IMG/VR virus record: IMGVR_UViG_2912723979_000001
Coordinates: 23,894-87,893 of that record
Length of the DNA: 64,000 nucleotides
Direction: 5' to 3' (one strand)
From: a virus
Lineage: Duplodnaviria; Caudoviricetes
Shown here: positions 5,411 through 64,000 of the stretch, one piece after another
How the letters are laid out: every line of letters begins with the position of its first letter
Numbering within the stretch: the first letter of the stretch is position 1
The notes under the pieces: model-generated
What the model saw: the letters and a program-made list of their open reading frames with translations, nothing else
Databases searched by the model: none
What the model was told of the DNA's origin: nothing
Position numbers and translations under genes: made by a program

Positions 5411-6238
5411 GTGCCCGACCTCGACATCAAGCAGTACGACGTGACCGGCCAGCTCGGCCGGCACATGGTCCTCGACGAACGCAGCCTCGCCTACACCAGG
5501 CGCTACGACGGCGAACGCATCAAGCCCGCCGAGTGGGCTCCGAAGGTGCCGGTCCTGGACCAGGAAGACCTGCTCGCCCAGGACATCCACACCTCACAGC
5601 TGTTCGAAGGCGTCGACGACGTGGACGCCCTCGGCTCGTGCACCGGCAACGCCGGCACCGAACTGATCTCCGTCCTCCACGACGCGGACACCCTCAAGAC
5701 GGCCGGCCTCGACGTCACCGACCCGGTGGCCGCCGAAAGGTGGGCTATCGGCCTCTACTCCGACGCCACCCACCGCGACCAGTGGCACGACGCCGCCTAC
5801 CCCTCCGACGACTGCGGCTCCTCCGGCCTCGGTATCGCCAAGGCACTGCGCTCCCGCGGCCTGATCGACCAGTACGGACACGCCACCAACGCCCTGGAAC
5901 TGTGCCGGGACCTGCAGACCGGCCCGTTCCTGATGGGAACCGTCTGGTACCAGGCCTGGTTCGAGCCGACCACCCCCTCCGCCCTCCTGGACGACATCAA
6001 GGGCTGGGAGAAGTCCCCCGTCGCGGGCGGCCACGAAGTATGCGTGACCGCCCTCGAGGACGTCGTCTTCGACTCCAGCGGCTCCCTCGACTACAAGCGC
6101 ACCATCCTGCGCCTGCGCAACCACTGGACGCGCTCCTGGGGCGACGAAGGCGAATTCCGCATGTCGCTCGCCCTCTACCAGCAGCTACGCGACGACATCG
6201 ACCTGATCCAGCCCCGCCTGGACGCCTACCACAAGTAG
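5411..6238 (+). CDS. Papain-like (C1-family) cysteine protease
   Basis: Probable GTG start 5411; LGSCTGNA (Cys), GGHEVCV (His), LRNHWTRSWGDEG (Asn) match the papain triad. Confidence 0.8.
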   Translation: MPDLDIKQYDVTGQLGRHMVLDERSLAYTRRYDGERIKPAEWAPKVPVLDQEDLLAQDIHTSQLFEGVDDVDALGSCTGNAGTELISVLHDADTLKTAGLDVTDPVAAERWAIGLYSDATHRDQWHDAAYPSDDCGSSGLGIAKALRSRGLIDQYGHATNALELCRDLQTGPFLMGTVWYQAWFEPTTPSALLDDIKGWEKSPVAGGHEVCVTALEDVVFDSSGSLDYKRTILRLRNHWTRSWGDEGEFRMSLALYQQLRDDIDLIQPRLDAYHK

Positions 6239-6266
6239 CCCCCGCCCCGCCCTCAAGGAGATCAGC

Positions 6267-6650
6267 ATGAACACCCCGAAGAAGTCCCCCGACCAGCCGG
6301 ACGCCGCCGCGCCCGAGCCGGCCACCGCCCCGGAGAACAGCCCGTCCTCGGAGCCCGCCACCGAACCACACGCCACCCACACAAGCGGCGGCGACTACGA
6401 GCCCTACCCGGGCGCCGCCTACTTCCACGGAGGCCGCACCAGCGACGTCATCGCCGTCATGGCACAGCGCCTGAACCAGGAAGGCTTCAGCGACTACCGC
6501 CTGGGCGCGGACTGGACGAACTCCCACCGCCGGGCGTTCAAGACGTTCCAGGAGTCGCTGCGCCCCAAGGGCGGCGGAGACACTTCCGGCATCCCCGACG
6601 AGGCCGCCTGGAACAAGCTGCGCGTCCCGCGCGTCACCCCGGAGGCATGA
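6267..6650 (+). CDS. Stand-alone peptidoglycan-binding-domain protein
   Basis: C-terminal YEPYPGAAYF...AWNKLRVP aligns by eye with endolysin C-terminus YEPFPGAGWF...TWDKLHVP. Confidence 0.7.
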   Translation: MNTPKKSPDQPDAAAPEPATAPENSPSSEPATEPHATHTSGGDYEPYPGAAYFHGGRTSDVIAVMAQRLNQEGFSDYRLGADWTNSHRRAFKTFQESLRPKGGGDTSGIPDEAAWNKLRVPRVTPEA

Positions 6651-7576
6651 CCATGGCCACCTGCCGCGGAATCGACGTAAGCGCCTACCAGGGCACCCAG
6701 GACTGGACAGCGTGGAAGAAGCAGGGCGTCGTCTTCGCCTTCGCCAAGGCGTCCGAGGGGCAGAGCACTCACGACCCGAAGTTCGCCACCCACATCAAGG
6801 GCATCAAGGCCGCCGACCTCGTCCCGGGCGGCTACCACTTCGCGTGGCCGAACCAAGACCCGCGCAAGGAGGCCGCGAACTACATTGCCGCGGTCAAGGG
6901 GGTCGCGGGCAAGGGCTTCTGTCACTGGCTCGACCTGGAGCGCTACAGCGACGGCCGGAACTACCGCGGTAAGAGCGACGCGCAGATCCGCGACTGGGTC
7001 ACCACGTGGCTCGCCGCTGTGCGCACGGCGTTCCCCGGGCAGCGCGTCGGCGTCTACACGAGCGCCGACGACCTCGCCAAGGGCCACGTGCCGTCTGGAA
7101 CGCCGCTCTGGTACCCGGCCTACCCGGGATCGTCCGTGGACACCTTCACGGAGGCGGAAGGACACTCGAAGCCCAAGCCCAGCGGCTGGACGCCGCTCAT
7201 CTGGCAGTTCACCTCGGATCCCGCGGGTCCCACCCGCATCGACCAGTCCATCGCCTACATGTTCGCGGCCGACTTCCGCGCCTGGGCCGGCAGCGCGTCG
7301 GCGCCCGCACCGAAGCCAGCCTCGAAGTACGAGCCGTTCCCCGGTGCCGGCTGGTTCACGATGGGCCGCAAGAGCCCGATCGTCGCCGCGATGCACGACC
7401 GGCTTGTCGCTGTGGGCTGCAACCACTACCAGTCCTCGAAGAACAAGGACGTCATCGGCTCCGGCGACAAGGCGAGCTACGAGGCGTGGCAGCGCAAGTG
7501 CGGCTTCACCGGTGCCGCCGCCACCTGGCCGCCCGGCAAGACCACCTGGGACAAGCTTCACGTCCCCAACGTCTGA
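6647..7576 (+). CDS. Endolysin, GH25 muramidase with C-terminal wall-binding domain
   Basis: GIDVSAYQG, KASEG, GGYHF, WLDLE, WQFTS motifs of GH25. Confidence 0.9.
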   Translation: MTMATCRGIDVSAYQGTQDWTAWKKQGVVFAFAKASEGQSTHDPKFATHIKGIKAADLVPGGYHFAWPNQDPRKEAANYIAAVKGVAGKGFCHWLDLERYSDGRNYRGKSDAQIRDWVTTWLAAVRTAFPGQRVGVYTSADDLAKGHVPSGTPLWYPAYPGSSVDTFTEAEGHSKPKPSGWTPLIWQFTSDPAGPTRIDQSIAYMFAADFRAWAGSASAPAPKPASKYEPFPGAGWFTMGRKSPIVAAMHDRLVAVGCNHYQSSKNKDVIGSGDKASYEAWQRKCGFTGAAATWPPGKTTWDKLHVPNV

Positions 7577-7613
7577 CCCCTCCGACACCACCCACCCGCT
7601 CTAGGAGACCACC

Positions 7614-7976
7614 GTGTCACCCACCAAACTGTTCGGTCGTGAACCGGCCGCCTGGCTGGCCCTCATCGCGGTCGCCGTGAAGCTTGCCGCCGCGTTCGGC
7701 CTGGACGTCACCGCCGACCAGCAGGCCACCATCAACGCCGTCGCCGCGGCCGCGATGGGCGTCCTGATCGCCGCCGTCGCCCACGACGGTGTCGGCGCCG
7801 CCGTCATCGGCCTCGCGCAGGCCGGCCTCGCCCTCGCCATCGGGTTCGGCCTGGACTGGTCCGCCGACCGGCAGGCAGTCGTCATGGCCGCCGTCACCGT
7901 GGTGGTCGGCATGTGGGACCGCACCCAGGTCACCGCCCCGATCCCGGCAGAAGCCGTGCGCCGCCGCACCGCCTGA
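7614..7976 (+). CDS. Holin
   Basis: 120 aa, several hydrophobic helices, KLFGREPAAW start, directly after endolysin. Confidence 0.75.
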   Translation: MSPTKLFGREPAAWLALIAVAVKLAAAFGLDVTADQQATINAVAAAAMGVLIAAVAHDGVGAAVIGLAQAGLALAIGFGLDWSADRQAVVMAAVTVVVGMWDRTQVTAPIPAEAVRRRTA

Positions 7977-8360: not shown

Positions 8361-9034
8361 CTCACCCGAGGTCTGGCAGCCGGGTGGAGGCACGCAAGCG
8401 TCACCGGCGAGGGAACTGGATCGCTGCTGCGGCGATCGTCATCGCGGGCGGCGCCCTGGCGGCGGTCGTCACCGCCTTCTTCACGCTGTCTCAGCAACTG
8501 GAGCGGGCCAACCACGCCCGGGATCTACTGGCGGCTCAGGTGCAGCAGCTCGGCGGTACCCCGGTGGCCGGCCCACCAGGATCGCGGGGCACCCCCGGGG
8601 CTACCGGATTGGTCGGCCCGCCCGGCCCTGCGGGACCTTCCGGCCGGCCGGGGGAGTCCGGGAAGCCGGGCAAGCCCGCGCCCACCATCACCCCAAGCCC
8701 CGGGCCCTCAGGCCCGACGGGTCCGGCAGGGGCACCCGGAGCCGACTCCACCCTCCCCGGGCCGACCGGACCGGAGGGACAGCCCGGAGCCTCCGGAGCG
8801 CCCGGCCGCGACGGGGCGAACGGGGCGCCTCCGTCGTCGTGGACGTACAGCGACGAGTACGGGAATACCTACGAGTGCGTGCCGGTCAGCGACTTCGACC
8901 CGAGCGACCCGCGGTACCGGTGCACACAGACATCCACCGCGTCCCCCACCACGTCGCCGGCGCCACCAAGCTCGTCGGATCCTGCCCCGTCGCCCAGCTC
9001 ACTCGCTCCGCTGGGCCTCGCACCTCGGTTGTAG
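8357..9034 (+). CDS. Membrane-anchored collagen-like protein
   Basis: ATGA overlap; N-terminal TM, long Gly-X-Y run, small two-Cys C-terminal domain. Confidence 0.75.
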
Positions 9035-27481: not shown

Positions 27482-27549
27482 GTGGTGACCATTGGTCACC
27501 ACCTTAGGGTCAGATAGACGACAAGGTGGTGACCATTGGTCACCACCTT
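27480..27549. repeat. Two perfect 25-bp palindromes (parS-like centromere candidate)
   Basis: AGGTGGTGACCA-T-TGGTCACCACCT at 27480-27504 and 27524-27548, 44-bp period, just downstream of par operon. Confidence 0.85.
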
Positions 27550-62621: not shown

Positions 62622-63779
62622 GTGACCACCGTCCAGGCCCCCCAGGCCACCACCGAACGCGCACCCGTGCGCTCGCTGACCGGCGGGCAGATCACGGTGC
62701 TCACCCTCGCCACCATCCCCATGATCGCCGTAGGTGCCGCTGGCGCAGTCGGCACCTACGGCAACGCCAAGGCAGTCCTGCACCGCTCCGAGACTGCCCT
62801 CGGTGTCGTTGCCGCCGGCGAAGGTGCCACCCTCGTTGCCGCCCTCGTCATGATCGGCGTCACCATGCTCGGCCAATCCGCCCCCCGCGTCGCCCGCACC
62901 GCACTCTGGCTGCTCCCTGCCGCCGCCTCCACCATGGGCCTCGCCATCGCCCCCACCGCCCGCGAAGCCGTCGTCTACGCCCTCACCCCCCTCGCCATGA
63001 CCGCCTCAGCCGAAGGCATCAGTTTCCTCGCCCGCCGCATCGTCTCCCACACCACCGGCATCGACGTCGAAGCCCACCGCCGCAACGCCGAGACCATGCG
63101 CCGGATCGCCTTCCACGCGGCTCAGTCCGAGCGCCACCCCGACGAGAAGGTACGAGCCGACTCAGCGCTCAAGGCATGGAAGCTGATGCGGGAGATCGGC
63201 GAGGGAGACGCACAGCTCGGCTCAGGACTCATCACCGTCCAGCGAGACCGGCTCACCCAGGGAGCCGACGCTGCCCTCATGGCCATGCTCACCGGCACCC
63301 GTGAGCCCCGTGAGCCCATCCCGGCTCACCCCGAGCCGCGGGCCATCGAGCCCAGCGAGACGACCCCTGAGCCGCTCGCTGAGCCGACCGGGAGCACCGT
63401 GATCCTCAGCCAGACAACCGGCTCAACCTCCCCGGCTCACACCCCGCACCTCCCCGACACCCGGCCGATCATCCAGCCCTCTGACCAGGTGATCCGCCGT
63501 GAGCCCGTCTTGAGCCCGGCTGAGCCCGCCTTCGCCAAGCCCCACCAGGCAGCCAGTGAGACGGCCACTGAGCCGGTCCCCGCTGAGACGGATGAGCCTG
63601 AGCCGGGAGCCGACGAGAAGGAACAGCAGATCGCCACCCTGGCTCACCGGCTCAAGACCGGCGAGCGGCTCACCAAGAGCACAGCGGCTCAGCTCCTCGG
63701 AGTGAGCCCGGCGACCGCCGGACGTCGGCTCAAGGACGCCCGCGACCGGATCGGTGAAGGGACCGGGTTCTACGCATGA
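62622..63779 (+). CDS. Multi-TM, Pro/Glu linker, C-terminal HTH protein (Spd/DUF2637-like plasmid spread protein)
   Basis: About four N-terminal TMs, coiled region, LTKSTAAQLLGVSPATAGRRLKDAR HTH. Confidence 0.7.
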   Translation: MTTVQAPQATTERAPVRSLTGGQITVLTLATIPMIAVGAAGAVGTYGNAKAVLHRSETALGVVAAGEGATLVAALVMIGVTMLGQSAPRVARTALWLLPAAASTMGLAIAPTAREAVVYALTPLAMTASAEGISFLARRIVSHTTGIDVEAHRRNAETMRRIAFHAAQSERHPDEKVRADSALKAWKLMREIGEGDAQLGSGLITVQRDRLTQGADAALMAMLTGTREPREPIPAHPEPRAIEPSETTPEPLAEPTGSTVILSQTTGSTSPAHTPHLPDTRPIIQPSDQVIRREPVLSPAEPAFAKPHQAASETATEPVPAETDEPEPGADEKEQQIATLAHRLKTGERLTKSTAAQLLGVSPATAGRRLKDARDRIGEGTGFYA

Positions 63780-63782
63780 GCC
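63119..63782. repeat. Array of 23 TGAGCC/GGCTCA hexamers
   Basis: 11 GGCTCA and 12 TGAGCC counted by eye, in mixed frames and both orientations. Confidence 0.8.
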
Positions 63783-63919
63783 GCACCCAACCGGAGACCA
63801 AGCCGCGGGTGGTAGCCCCGCCTGCGGCCCCGGCCCGCACCCCCCACACCAGCCCGGCGCCGGCCACCCGGCTACCGCCCACCGAAGCCCCGAACCCGAA
63901 GCCCGAGAAGACTGCCTGA
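63776..63919 (+). CDS. Small Pro-rich protein (47 aa)
   Basis: ATGA coupling; followed by AGGAGG and an open frame running off the window. Confidence 0.4.
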   Translation: MSRTQPETKPRVVAPPAAPARTPHTSPAPATRLPPTEAPNPKPEKTA

Positions 63920-64000
63920 AAGGAGTGCAGGAGGTGGCCGCAGAGACGATCAACAGCTTCTCCCTCAGCCCTTCAACGACAACCCCGGACACTACGGTGA

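Follow-up and report, generated by a model that had tools for sequence, protein, structure and literature searches.

The last gene of the 64-kb stretch of Streptomyces DNA analysed here (the window) carries, in its 3′ part, a dense array of a single hexamer, GGCTCA. This array is maintained at the level of the DNA, is conserved among relatives while its individual sites turn over, and co-occurs strictly with one C-terminal helix–turn–helix (HTH) module of the encoded protein. The window is the final part of an 87,893-bp circular record, plasmid unnamed3 of Streptomyces sp. NEAU-sy36 (NZ_CP058980.1; hereafter, the NEAU-sy36 plasmid), and the gene (62622–63779, + strand; WP_180333973.1, a "hypothetical protein" in RefSeq) is the final one annotated ahead of the record's origin. 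As judged from the open reading frame, annotation and homologues, it encodes a membrane-anchored HTH protein of 385 aa, which is of the Spd/SpdB2 type by its position. The explanation we favour, with moderate confidence, is that the clustered hexamers are the cognate binding sites for the HTH which this gene encodes and would tether plasmid DNA to a membrane complex for spread or transfer.

The window contains 58 copies of GGCTCA on both strands, 23 of them within 664 bp (63119–63782) and 35 in the other 63.3 kb. Eleven copies of the array read on the + strand (at 63119, 63219, 63250, 63323, 63420, 63434, 63641, 63649, 63667, 63686 and 63727) and 12 on the − strand (TGAGCC on the + strand; 63302, 63311, 63368, 63380, 63500, 63511, 63521, 63569, 63593, 63599, 63703 and 63777). 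These exact counts agree with the original prediction, made from the window alone, which had put the expectation at less than one copy; the density outside the array (45 copies over 87.2 kb of plasmid) predicts 0.34 for a stretch of 664 bp (Poisson P = 5.5e-34). Genome-wide k-mer enrichment had been suggested as a check at the same time. When all 87.9 kb were scanned for clustered 6- to 9-mers, the GGCTCA array was the strongest cluster by a wide margin, followed by iterons and a group of four TGGTCACCA copies. The core of the repeated word is the hexamer alone: added information was present only at position −1 (C or G in 86%) and at position −2 (C in 54%), and variants with one mismatch were only mildly enriched. 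Depletion of GGCTCA outside the array was considered as an additional signal and rejected, as the word is slightly rare here and equally rare in the array-less plasmid pZL12.

Codon positions showed the copies to be distributed over all three frames and both orientations (different frames and both strands in the original prediction), and they encode different peptides: G-S (GGC TCA), R-L-x (cGG CTC Ann), A-Q or A-H (GCT CAn), x-E-P (nnT GAG CCn) and V-S-P (gTG AGC Ccn). The array sets in at codon 166 and extends over the DNA for linker and HTH as well as for the cytoplasmic helices, while no copy is present where this gene encodes the membrane helices; the TGA stop codon falls within the last copy, and 22 of the 23 copies are in the gene. 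Back-translation of the protein with the codon usage of the plasmid yielded 1.84 ± 1.29 copies (maximum 8 in 1,000 trials) as opposed to the 22 observed. A more conservative null, in which synonymous codons were shuffled within the gene and its biased usage was thus kept, yielded 2.9 copies, and no 6-mer exceeded 12 copies in 300 shuffles. Codon choice itself is skewed, with A/T-ending codons making up 36% where the third base lies in a hexamer versus 14% elsewhere in the 3′ part of the gene, and two seldom-used codons, TCA (Ser, 3% usage) and GCT (Ala, 9%), occupy hexamer positions invariably, in 12/12 or 11/12 relatives. For invariant amino acids, pairwise codon identity is 0.94 in conserved hexamers versus 0.79 outside. 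Counts in excess of both protein-preserving nulls, together with the biased codons, thus place the signal in the DNA and not in the protein, as had been claimed. A codon alignment of 12 genes contained 42 distinct site columns, ∼14 of which are present in at least 10 genes; the remaining ones occur in 1–9 of the 12 genes, often with a one-base variant in the others, and still the total per gene stays at 17–22. That sites turn over while their count is maintained indicates that selection acts on the number of sites rather than on particular positions.

The structure of the protein was modelled with AlphaFold2 together with 12 homologues. The models, along with weak HTH profile matches, bore out the N-terminal transmembrane helices and C-terminal HTH of the original prediction (all coordinates that follow are on the + strand). 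Four transmembrane helices are predicted from the model, from hydrophobicity and from many family-invariant residues (residues 21–53, 56–83, 89–109 and 113–145; 62682–63056); the motifs GEGATL and TPLAMT are invariant in the family, and the DNA encoding this membrane domain (residues 21–145) carries the hexamer in two relatives only, as one copy. Three predicted cytoplasmic helices follow (residues 149–224; 63066–63293), which belong to the conserved N-terminal module and in whose DNA the array starts; homology with relatives that have another C-terminus reaches to about residue 220–250. Residues 226–326 (63297–63599) form a Pro/Glu/Thr-rich linker predicted to be disordered (predicted local distance difference test score, pLDDT, below 50). 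Most of the variable hexamer sites are located here, and although its protein sequence is poorly conserved, the hexamer count is maintained. The C-terminal bundle comprises three helices (residues 330–345, 352–359 and 363–378; 63609–63755; pLDDT 87–92) with the spacing of a classical HTH in the model, and its recognition helix, SPATAGRRLKDARDRI, is invariant in the family. The gene is a clear case in which a cis-acting DNA signal shapes codon usage and the amino acid composition of a disordered linker.

The protein as such is matched by no family of Pfam or NCBIfam; within these collections, only weak HTH matches were obtained (ISL3-type HTH, Xre-like, Fis and sigma-70 region 4). Sequence searches of the PDB and Foldseek searches, aimed at the class of the HTH, likewise returned only generic, non-significant HTH domains (LacI-type, E = 0.5; DNA-binding domain of DeoR, TM-score 0.65). 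By the positive-inside rule, both the N-terminus and the second loop would be cytoplasmic, as would the segment that follows helix 4 (N-in/C-in topology), so that the HTH should face the cytoplasm as well. By position and architecture, the protein is a predicted integral membrane protein of the Spd/SpdB2 type. No similarity was detectable between it and the "spdB2-like" protein of the linear plasmid SLP2.

What the array tracks was determined by comparing, at the DNA level, 19 genes with this HTH and 34 complete genes that encode a homologous membrane domain joined to a different C-terminus; one locus (L038, from the unpublished genome G133) was left out of all analyses. Each of the 19 genes encoding the recognition helix T[AG]GRRL (57–84% identity), chromosomal, metagenomic and IMG/VR copies included, contains 15–26 GGCTCA: 17–22 in nine sequenced plasmids, 18–20 in three draft genomes, 15–18 in a more distant clade from metagenomes and IMG/VR, and 26 in the most distant member (L058, an IMG/VR contig of 88,390 bp; 57% identity), where they are partly tandem, (TGAGCC)n, and encode EP repeats. 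L058 also has two further GGCTCA arrays in downstream genes, which brings the total to 52 copies in 9.3 kb (L058:4666–5178, 6830–7098 and 8555–8634). In contrast, all 34 genes with another C-terminus, whose membrane domains are 44–72% identical, contain 0–1 copies. The identity ranges of the two groups overlap, which indicates that the C-terminal module is exchanged among close relatives of the membrane domain. In the distant homologues (small plasmid L005, phages Mischief19 and TP1604, and loci L019–L028), no array exceeded the synonymous-shuffle null. Five copies of CGGACGTC in L005 were also considered as an array and rejected, as they are explained by D-V dipeptides.

The array was found beside three different downstream translocase modules. 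Type A is the TraB-like protein of pSLE1 (774 aa), with weak FtsK and C-terminal winged-helix matches; type B was encountered in NBC_01259 and S. anulatus; and type C, that of the NEAU-sy36 plasmid, is 80–85% identical to the proteins of the pZL12/pSP90/NBC_01590 group. Between types A and C, the Walker A motif was the only similarity detectable; the C-terminal helices of the two are different. Conversely, pZL12, pSP90 and NBC_01590 have the phage-plasmid backbone, terminase and type C translocase in common with the NEAU-sy36 plasmid, but neither the array gene nor a GGCTCA cluster (the 90 kb of pZL12 contain 38 copies, with no more than 2 in any 700 bp); an unrelated membrane protein of 398 aa is encoded at the position of the array gene. 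GAAGGAC/GACCCGA repeats in a 650-aa gene of these plasmids, which at first sight resemble the TRS repeats recognized by TraB, are in one orientation and inside a coding repeat, and each is present as a single copy in the NEAU-sy36 plasmid; they were therefore discarded. The TerS-like proteins of the NEAU-sy36 plasmid and pSLE1, both array-bearing, are only 29% identical, and no upstream operon protein is common to all array-bearing plasmids. As the array is independent of translocase, terminase and backbone, functions of these three are poor candidates for its reader. Among the loci compared, the gene's own HTH is the only DNA-binding element that always accompanies it.

A second pairing of domain and word was found in a sister subfamily of six relatives (L033, L035, L036, L037, L041 and L042; gene at L042:1459–2751), which have a different C-terminal domain (…LVVVLRHLRY..DPPLSYRQAVAAFREAGF…). 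Their linker DNA contains 6–12 copies of CGTSACG (CGTCACG/CGTGACG) versus 1.5–2.5 expected. The copies encode V-T dipeptides, with GTC ACG yielding one orientation of the word and GTG ACG the other. Thr is specified by ACG in 54/62 V-T pairs, as compared with 60/162 Thr codons elsewhere (P = 4.5e-12), and a C precedes the word in 53/62. The "spdB2-like" gene of SLP2 encodes the same C-terminal domain, with four to five CGTSACG in the 130 bp just upstream of it (L051:5888–6018), fused to an unrelated membrane domain. That another C-terminal domain goes with another word supports the idea of a cassette consisting of domain plus array. Covariation of the kind that the original prediction had suggested looking for was thus seen between subfamilies (GGCTCA versus CGTSACG), but not within the GGCTCA clade, where helix and word are invariant. 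CGTSACG is also a half-site of the palindrome sps (CGTCAC|GTGACG). An SpdA-like origin of the sister C-terminal domain was rejected, as the N-terminal domain of SpdA2 is Cys-rich and without similarity to it. In the Woodruffvirus phages Mischief19 and TP1604, yet another word, GCAACG, is apparently clustered (12–14 copies in ∼1 kb versus ∼0.7 expected), both immediately upstream of the membrane-HTH homologue and within its 5′ part, and again inside the neighbouring FtsK-like gene (L012:3415–4497 and 7007–7871; L013:3328–4267 and 6222–6574). This may be a third such pair.

How a protein of this kind might use the array can be envisaged as follows. Each GGCTCA would be bound by one HTH as a monomer; a word of this length is a plausible match for what a single recognition helix covers. 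The membrane protein, as an oligomer, would present many HTHs on tethers of ∼100 residues, and because Spd membrane proteins oligomerize, many tethered HTHs could engage the clustered sites with high avidity. A 660-bp cluster of ∼20 sites would in this way be pinned to a membrane complex containing the FtsK-like translocase, be it for loading the DNA for transfer, for spread across hyphal cross-walls and/or for stable inheritance. Placing the sites in the 3′ half of the gene itself would make DNA-binding domain and target inseparable during the frequent shuffling of modules and, more speculatively, may favour capture in cis while the protein is synthesized and inserted into the membrane. Binding of the array by the HTH, its stoichiometry, the topology and the biological role are steps that we infer. 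For the DNA-to-membrane tether or transfer-loading locus put forward in the original prediction, the comparison adds support, in that the array follows the HTH module alone and a sister domain goes with another word; the mechanism keeps its conditional form. Several points weigh against this proposal. The array lies inside the DNA encoding linker and HTH, so that co-inheritance of the two is physically forced, and the genes behind the 19-versus-34 contrast are phylogenetically non-independent, representing few independent evolutionary events. Neither the recognition helix nor the word varies within the clade, so that covariation between them is not seen on a finer scale. An array in the own gene is not obligatory either, because L058 has GGCTCA arrays in downstream genes, too. 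The identity of CGTSACG with a half-site of sps, which has a known binder in SpdA, means that a protein other than the gene product could read the arrays of spd membrane genes. Finally, the transfer system of the NEAU-sy36 plasmid may be decaying (its two large downstream genes are frameshifted), and the intact array may simply not have eroded yet.

If not the gene's own HTH, an FtsK-like translocase of the TraB type might read the array via its C-terminal winged helix, which would make it a clt-like locus that resides in an spd gene incidentally. Known clt loci are indeed clusters of short repeats near tra genes (PMC4447253, PMC3583192), transfer requires a major tra gene plus two adjacent genes according to a secondary source (PMC3583192), the positional equivalent of the array gene in pZL12 adjoins the translocase, and the k-mer scan of the NEAU-sy36 plasmid revealed no other clt-like cluster. 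The weak FtsK and C-terminal winged-helix matches of the pSLE1-type translocase also fit such a role. However, one and the same hexamer array stands beside three translocase modules, two of which (types A and C) are dissimilar and differ in their C-terminal helices, type C plasmids lacking the array gene (pZL12, pSP90 and NBC_01590) lack a GGCTCA array as well, and the orientations are mixed, not direct. TraB as the reader, which the original prediction had considered, is therefore disfavoured, and we regard this explanation as unlikely. Unlikely, too, is another reader acting in trans, such as a small Spd-type plasmid protein (in the way SpdA reads sps) or a conserved host protein, with the gene's own HTH directed at something else. 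The sister word, being half of a site with a demonstrated binder, SpdA2, speaks for it, as does the interaction with conserved host functions proposed by the authors of that work (PMC4170104). Yet a search with pIJ101 SpdA2 (tblastn) gave no match in the NEAU-sy36 plasmid or related loci, the palindrome CGTCAC(N)GTGACG is absent from the NEAU-sy36 plasmid, no candidate from the upstream operon is shared by all array-bearing plasmids, and the strict link with one HTH helix would have to be a coincidence; a host factor might nonetheless read the array.

The array might also act at the level of RNA or single-stranded DNA, where the complementary words GGCUCA and UGAGCC would fold the mRNA and control the stability or translation of the gene or of the overlapping next one, or where the rare codons would pace translation. 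The 664-nt RNA does fold 5 standard deviations better than dinucleotide shuffles (z = −5.0), but this excess follows automatically because the words are complementary. Stems would not require an identical 6-mer each time, the sites turn over without fixed partners, L058 has 22 consecutive copies in one orientation that are unable to pair with one another, and it is double-stranded DNA that is moved in Streptomyces-type conjugation (PMC4170104), all of which renders this option very improbable. The same can be said, with yet more emphasis, of a site belonging to the phage-plasmid backbone, whether a pac site recognized by the small terminase, a centromere for partition or an element of replication. 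Phages P1 and P22 have their pac sites within genes, and hexamers are the building blocks of the P1 site; in addition, the TerS-like protein has an HTH with a similar stretch, TAAQ..G(I/V)SPATA. Against this, pZL12, pSP90 and NBC_01590 have homologous terminase, portal and Par proteins yet no array, TerS is strongly divergent between two array-bearing plasmids (see above), array-bearing genes also occur on large chromosomal contigs, and the replicons have separate repeat clusters. Scarcely credible, finally, is a lack of any function, the array being a by-product of low-complexity peptide repeats (EP and RL) or of slippage-driven expansion. The tandem (TGAGCC)n of L058 does look like such a product, but the copies in the NEAU-sy36 plasmid are dispersed over three frames, both strands and five peptides, including conserved residues of the folded HTH; their number (22) compares with 1.8–2.9 under protein-preserving nulls, and the array is kept at 57–84% protein identity while individual sites turn over.

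As a candidate for sequence-specific recognition of a plasmid by the Streptomyces Spd machinery, the locus offers one HTH, one hexamer and ∼20 sites, and the more than 120 natural variants (see below) as well as the second domain–word pair are available as controls. If the proposed tether determines which DNA moves, the cassette would amount to a portable address tag for transfer between hyphal compartments. A wider generalization is possible but, in our estimation, rather doubtful: conjugative elements and phages of actinomycetes would use modular, self-addressed cassettes in which a membrane-anchored DNA receptor has its sites embedded, through the choice of codons, in the DNA that encodes its linker, and cassettes with different domains and words (GGCTCA, CGTSACG and possibly GCAACG) would be swapped between membrane domains and translocases, thereby setting which DNA the pore handles. 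If this were true, the membrane partner, in place of the translocase, would be in charge of recognizing the cargo, and the way in which the spread machinery finds plasmid DNA would be explained.

The NEAU-sy36 plasmid carries terminase, portal and capsid genes together with plasmid functions on one record, and belongs to the pZL12/pSLE1 family of 85–91-kb Streptomyces phage-plasmids. More than 120 full-length homologues of WP_180333973.1 were found at 58–84% identity, many on contigs of 85–92 kb and some on chromosomal contigs; a few are labelled "conjugal transfer protein" in RefSeq. In relatives (pSLE1, QHH-9511, S. chartreusis, NBC_01422, S. californicus, S. anulatus and one 15-kb conjugative plasmid), a divergent GntR regulator is followed by small genes, by the homologue of the array gene as the last of them, and then by large genes including the FtsK-like translocase. 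In the NEAU-sy36 plasmid itself, the regulator is an XRE-type HTH protein and the translocase is frameshifted. The N-terminal membrane module is far commoner than the whole array gene, being present on 15-kb conjugative plasmids (directly upstream of the large tra gene), in chromosomal elements and in Woodruffvirus phages of Streptomyces, where its homologue adjoins an FtsK-like gene. Phage-plasmids and some lytic or temperate Streptomyces phages thus have the same membrane module beside FtsK-like pumps.

Nucleotide similarity (78–81%) to nine sister plasmids of the pSLE1 group is confined to the array gene (∼62640–63865), the small genes upstream and the genes downstream not being conserved at this level; because of this limitation, the array gene behaves as a discrete and unusually conserved cassette. 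A mosaic junction follows (63865–64000), as similarity of the pSLE1 type ends at ∼63865 and a different plasmid group matches from about position 1–15 of the record. A long inverted repeat of G-rich and C-rich runs (GGGGCGGGGCGGGGGG … CCGCCCCGCCCGCCCCGCCCCC) is located at NZ_CP058980.1 14–110, ∼100 bp past the end of the window, where the pSLE1-type cassette joins transfer genes of the pZL12 type. The two large transfer genes downstream (NZ_CP058980.1 447–4357) correspond to those for the FtsK-like proteins of 650 and 717 aa in the pZL12/pSP90 group, but each is broken up into two or three reading frames, and RefSeq has only fragments (265, 167 and 409 aa); either the transfer system has undergone pseudogenization or the assembly contains indel errors. 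The notion of a plasmid without translocase was thus rejected, as one of a different type, that of the pZL12/pSP90 group, is present and broken by frameshifts. Directly upstream of the large terminase gene, and overlapping it, a "sigma-70 family" protein is encoded (NZ_CP058980.1 6470–7009), which is probably the small terminase; its N-terminal HTH (TAAQIAEHYGISPATARSDL) resembles that of the array gene (TAAQLLGVSPATAGRRL). The four copies of TGGTCACCA from the k-mer scan lie within 55 bp (window 27483–27537) and may serve the plasmid replicon as a site for partition or as iterons.

Among known systems, SpdA2 and sps come close in one respect, the location of the site. In pIJ101, SpdA2 recognizes a palindrome, sps, that is part of the spdA2 gene, and has an effect on stability; synonymous recoding was the decisive test (Thoma et al. 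2014, PMC4170104). For SpdA of pSN22, pJV1 and pSVH1, likewise a spread and stability protein of Streptomyces conjugative elements, the specific site is also inside the coding sequence (PMC4170104). The array is located in its own gene just as sps is in spdA, the gene product being the predicted binder here, and in both cases the site imposes peptide motifs, SRDD/E in SpdA and EP, RL, GS and AQ in the array protein. In other respects the two differ: SpdA2 is small and soluble, with an N-terminal Cys-rich domain (in SpdA-type proteins, the conserved N-terminal domain measures ∼40–50 aa), and sps is a 12-bp palindrome (CGTCACGTGACG) in 2–3 copies, whereas an asymmetric hexamer in ∼20 copies and both orientations is found here, in the gene of a four-helix membrane protein with a C-terminal HTH.

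With regard to the protein, SpdB2 of pSVH1 is the obvious counterpart, an integral membrane protein which forms oligomers, binds double-stranded DNA and interacts with TraB (Thoma et al. 2015, PMC4447253). Intramycelial spread requires SpdB2, and SLP2 shows reduced stability when its spdB2 is mutated (PMC4447253, PMC4170104). Relatives of the array gene likewise encode a membrane protein in a GntR/Kor-controlled spread operon beside an FtsK-like translocase. Unlike for the array gene, however, no array of sites has been described for SpdB2 of pSVH1, and the DNA binding of this only characterized SpdB2 was reported to be non-specific (Tiffert et al. 2007 as cited in PMC4447253). The SLP2 "spdB2-like" protein, in turn, has its C-terminal domain and CGTSACG cluster in common with the sister subfamily and not with the array gene. 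In a literature search, which covered work other than the original pZL12 paper, no mention of GGCTCA arrays or of a sequence-specific SpdB2-type protein was found.

Clusters of short repeats are best known from clt. TraB of pSVH1 recognizes 8-bp TRS repeats via a C-terminal winged helix (PMC4447253), and in clt of pSVH1, pJV1 and pIJ101 as well as in TraA/clt of pWTY27, 3–9 copies of 5–9-bp repeats are read by a membrane-associated plasmid protein, which addresses double-stranded DNA to the pore (PMC4447253, PMC3583192); in pWTY27, clt partly overlaps the tra gene (PMC3583192). There, the reader is the translocase and the repeats are few (about 4–9), mostly direct, 7–9 bp in length and usually at or beyond the end of tra, whereas the array is translocase-independent and of mixed orientation. 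Compared with clt, it also has 2–5 times more copies (∼20 of a 6-mer in 660 bp) and lies wholly inside another coding sequence. In RacA/ram of Bacillus subtilis and in ParB/parS, many short dispersed sites fasten DNA to an envelope-associated structure by multivalent binding. RacA is soluble, becomes polar via DivIVA and uses 14-bp sites distributed over hundreds of kilobases, and ParB spreads from 16-bp palindromes; to our knowledge, neither is related in sequence to the array protein or has sites in its own gene. The comparison with RacA made in the original prediction is accordingly apt as a loose functional analogy and nothing closer. By the tests run, the locus is not clearly a member of any of the three Streptomyces systems and joins features of all of them, SpdA/sps, SpdB2 and TraB/clt, in one gene.

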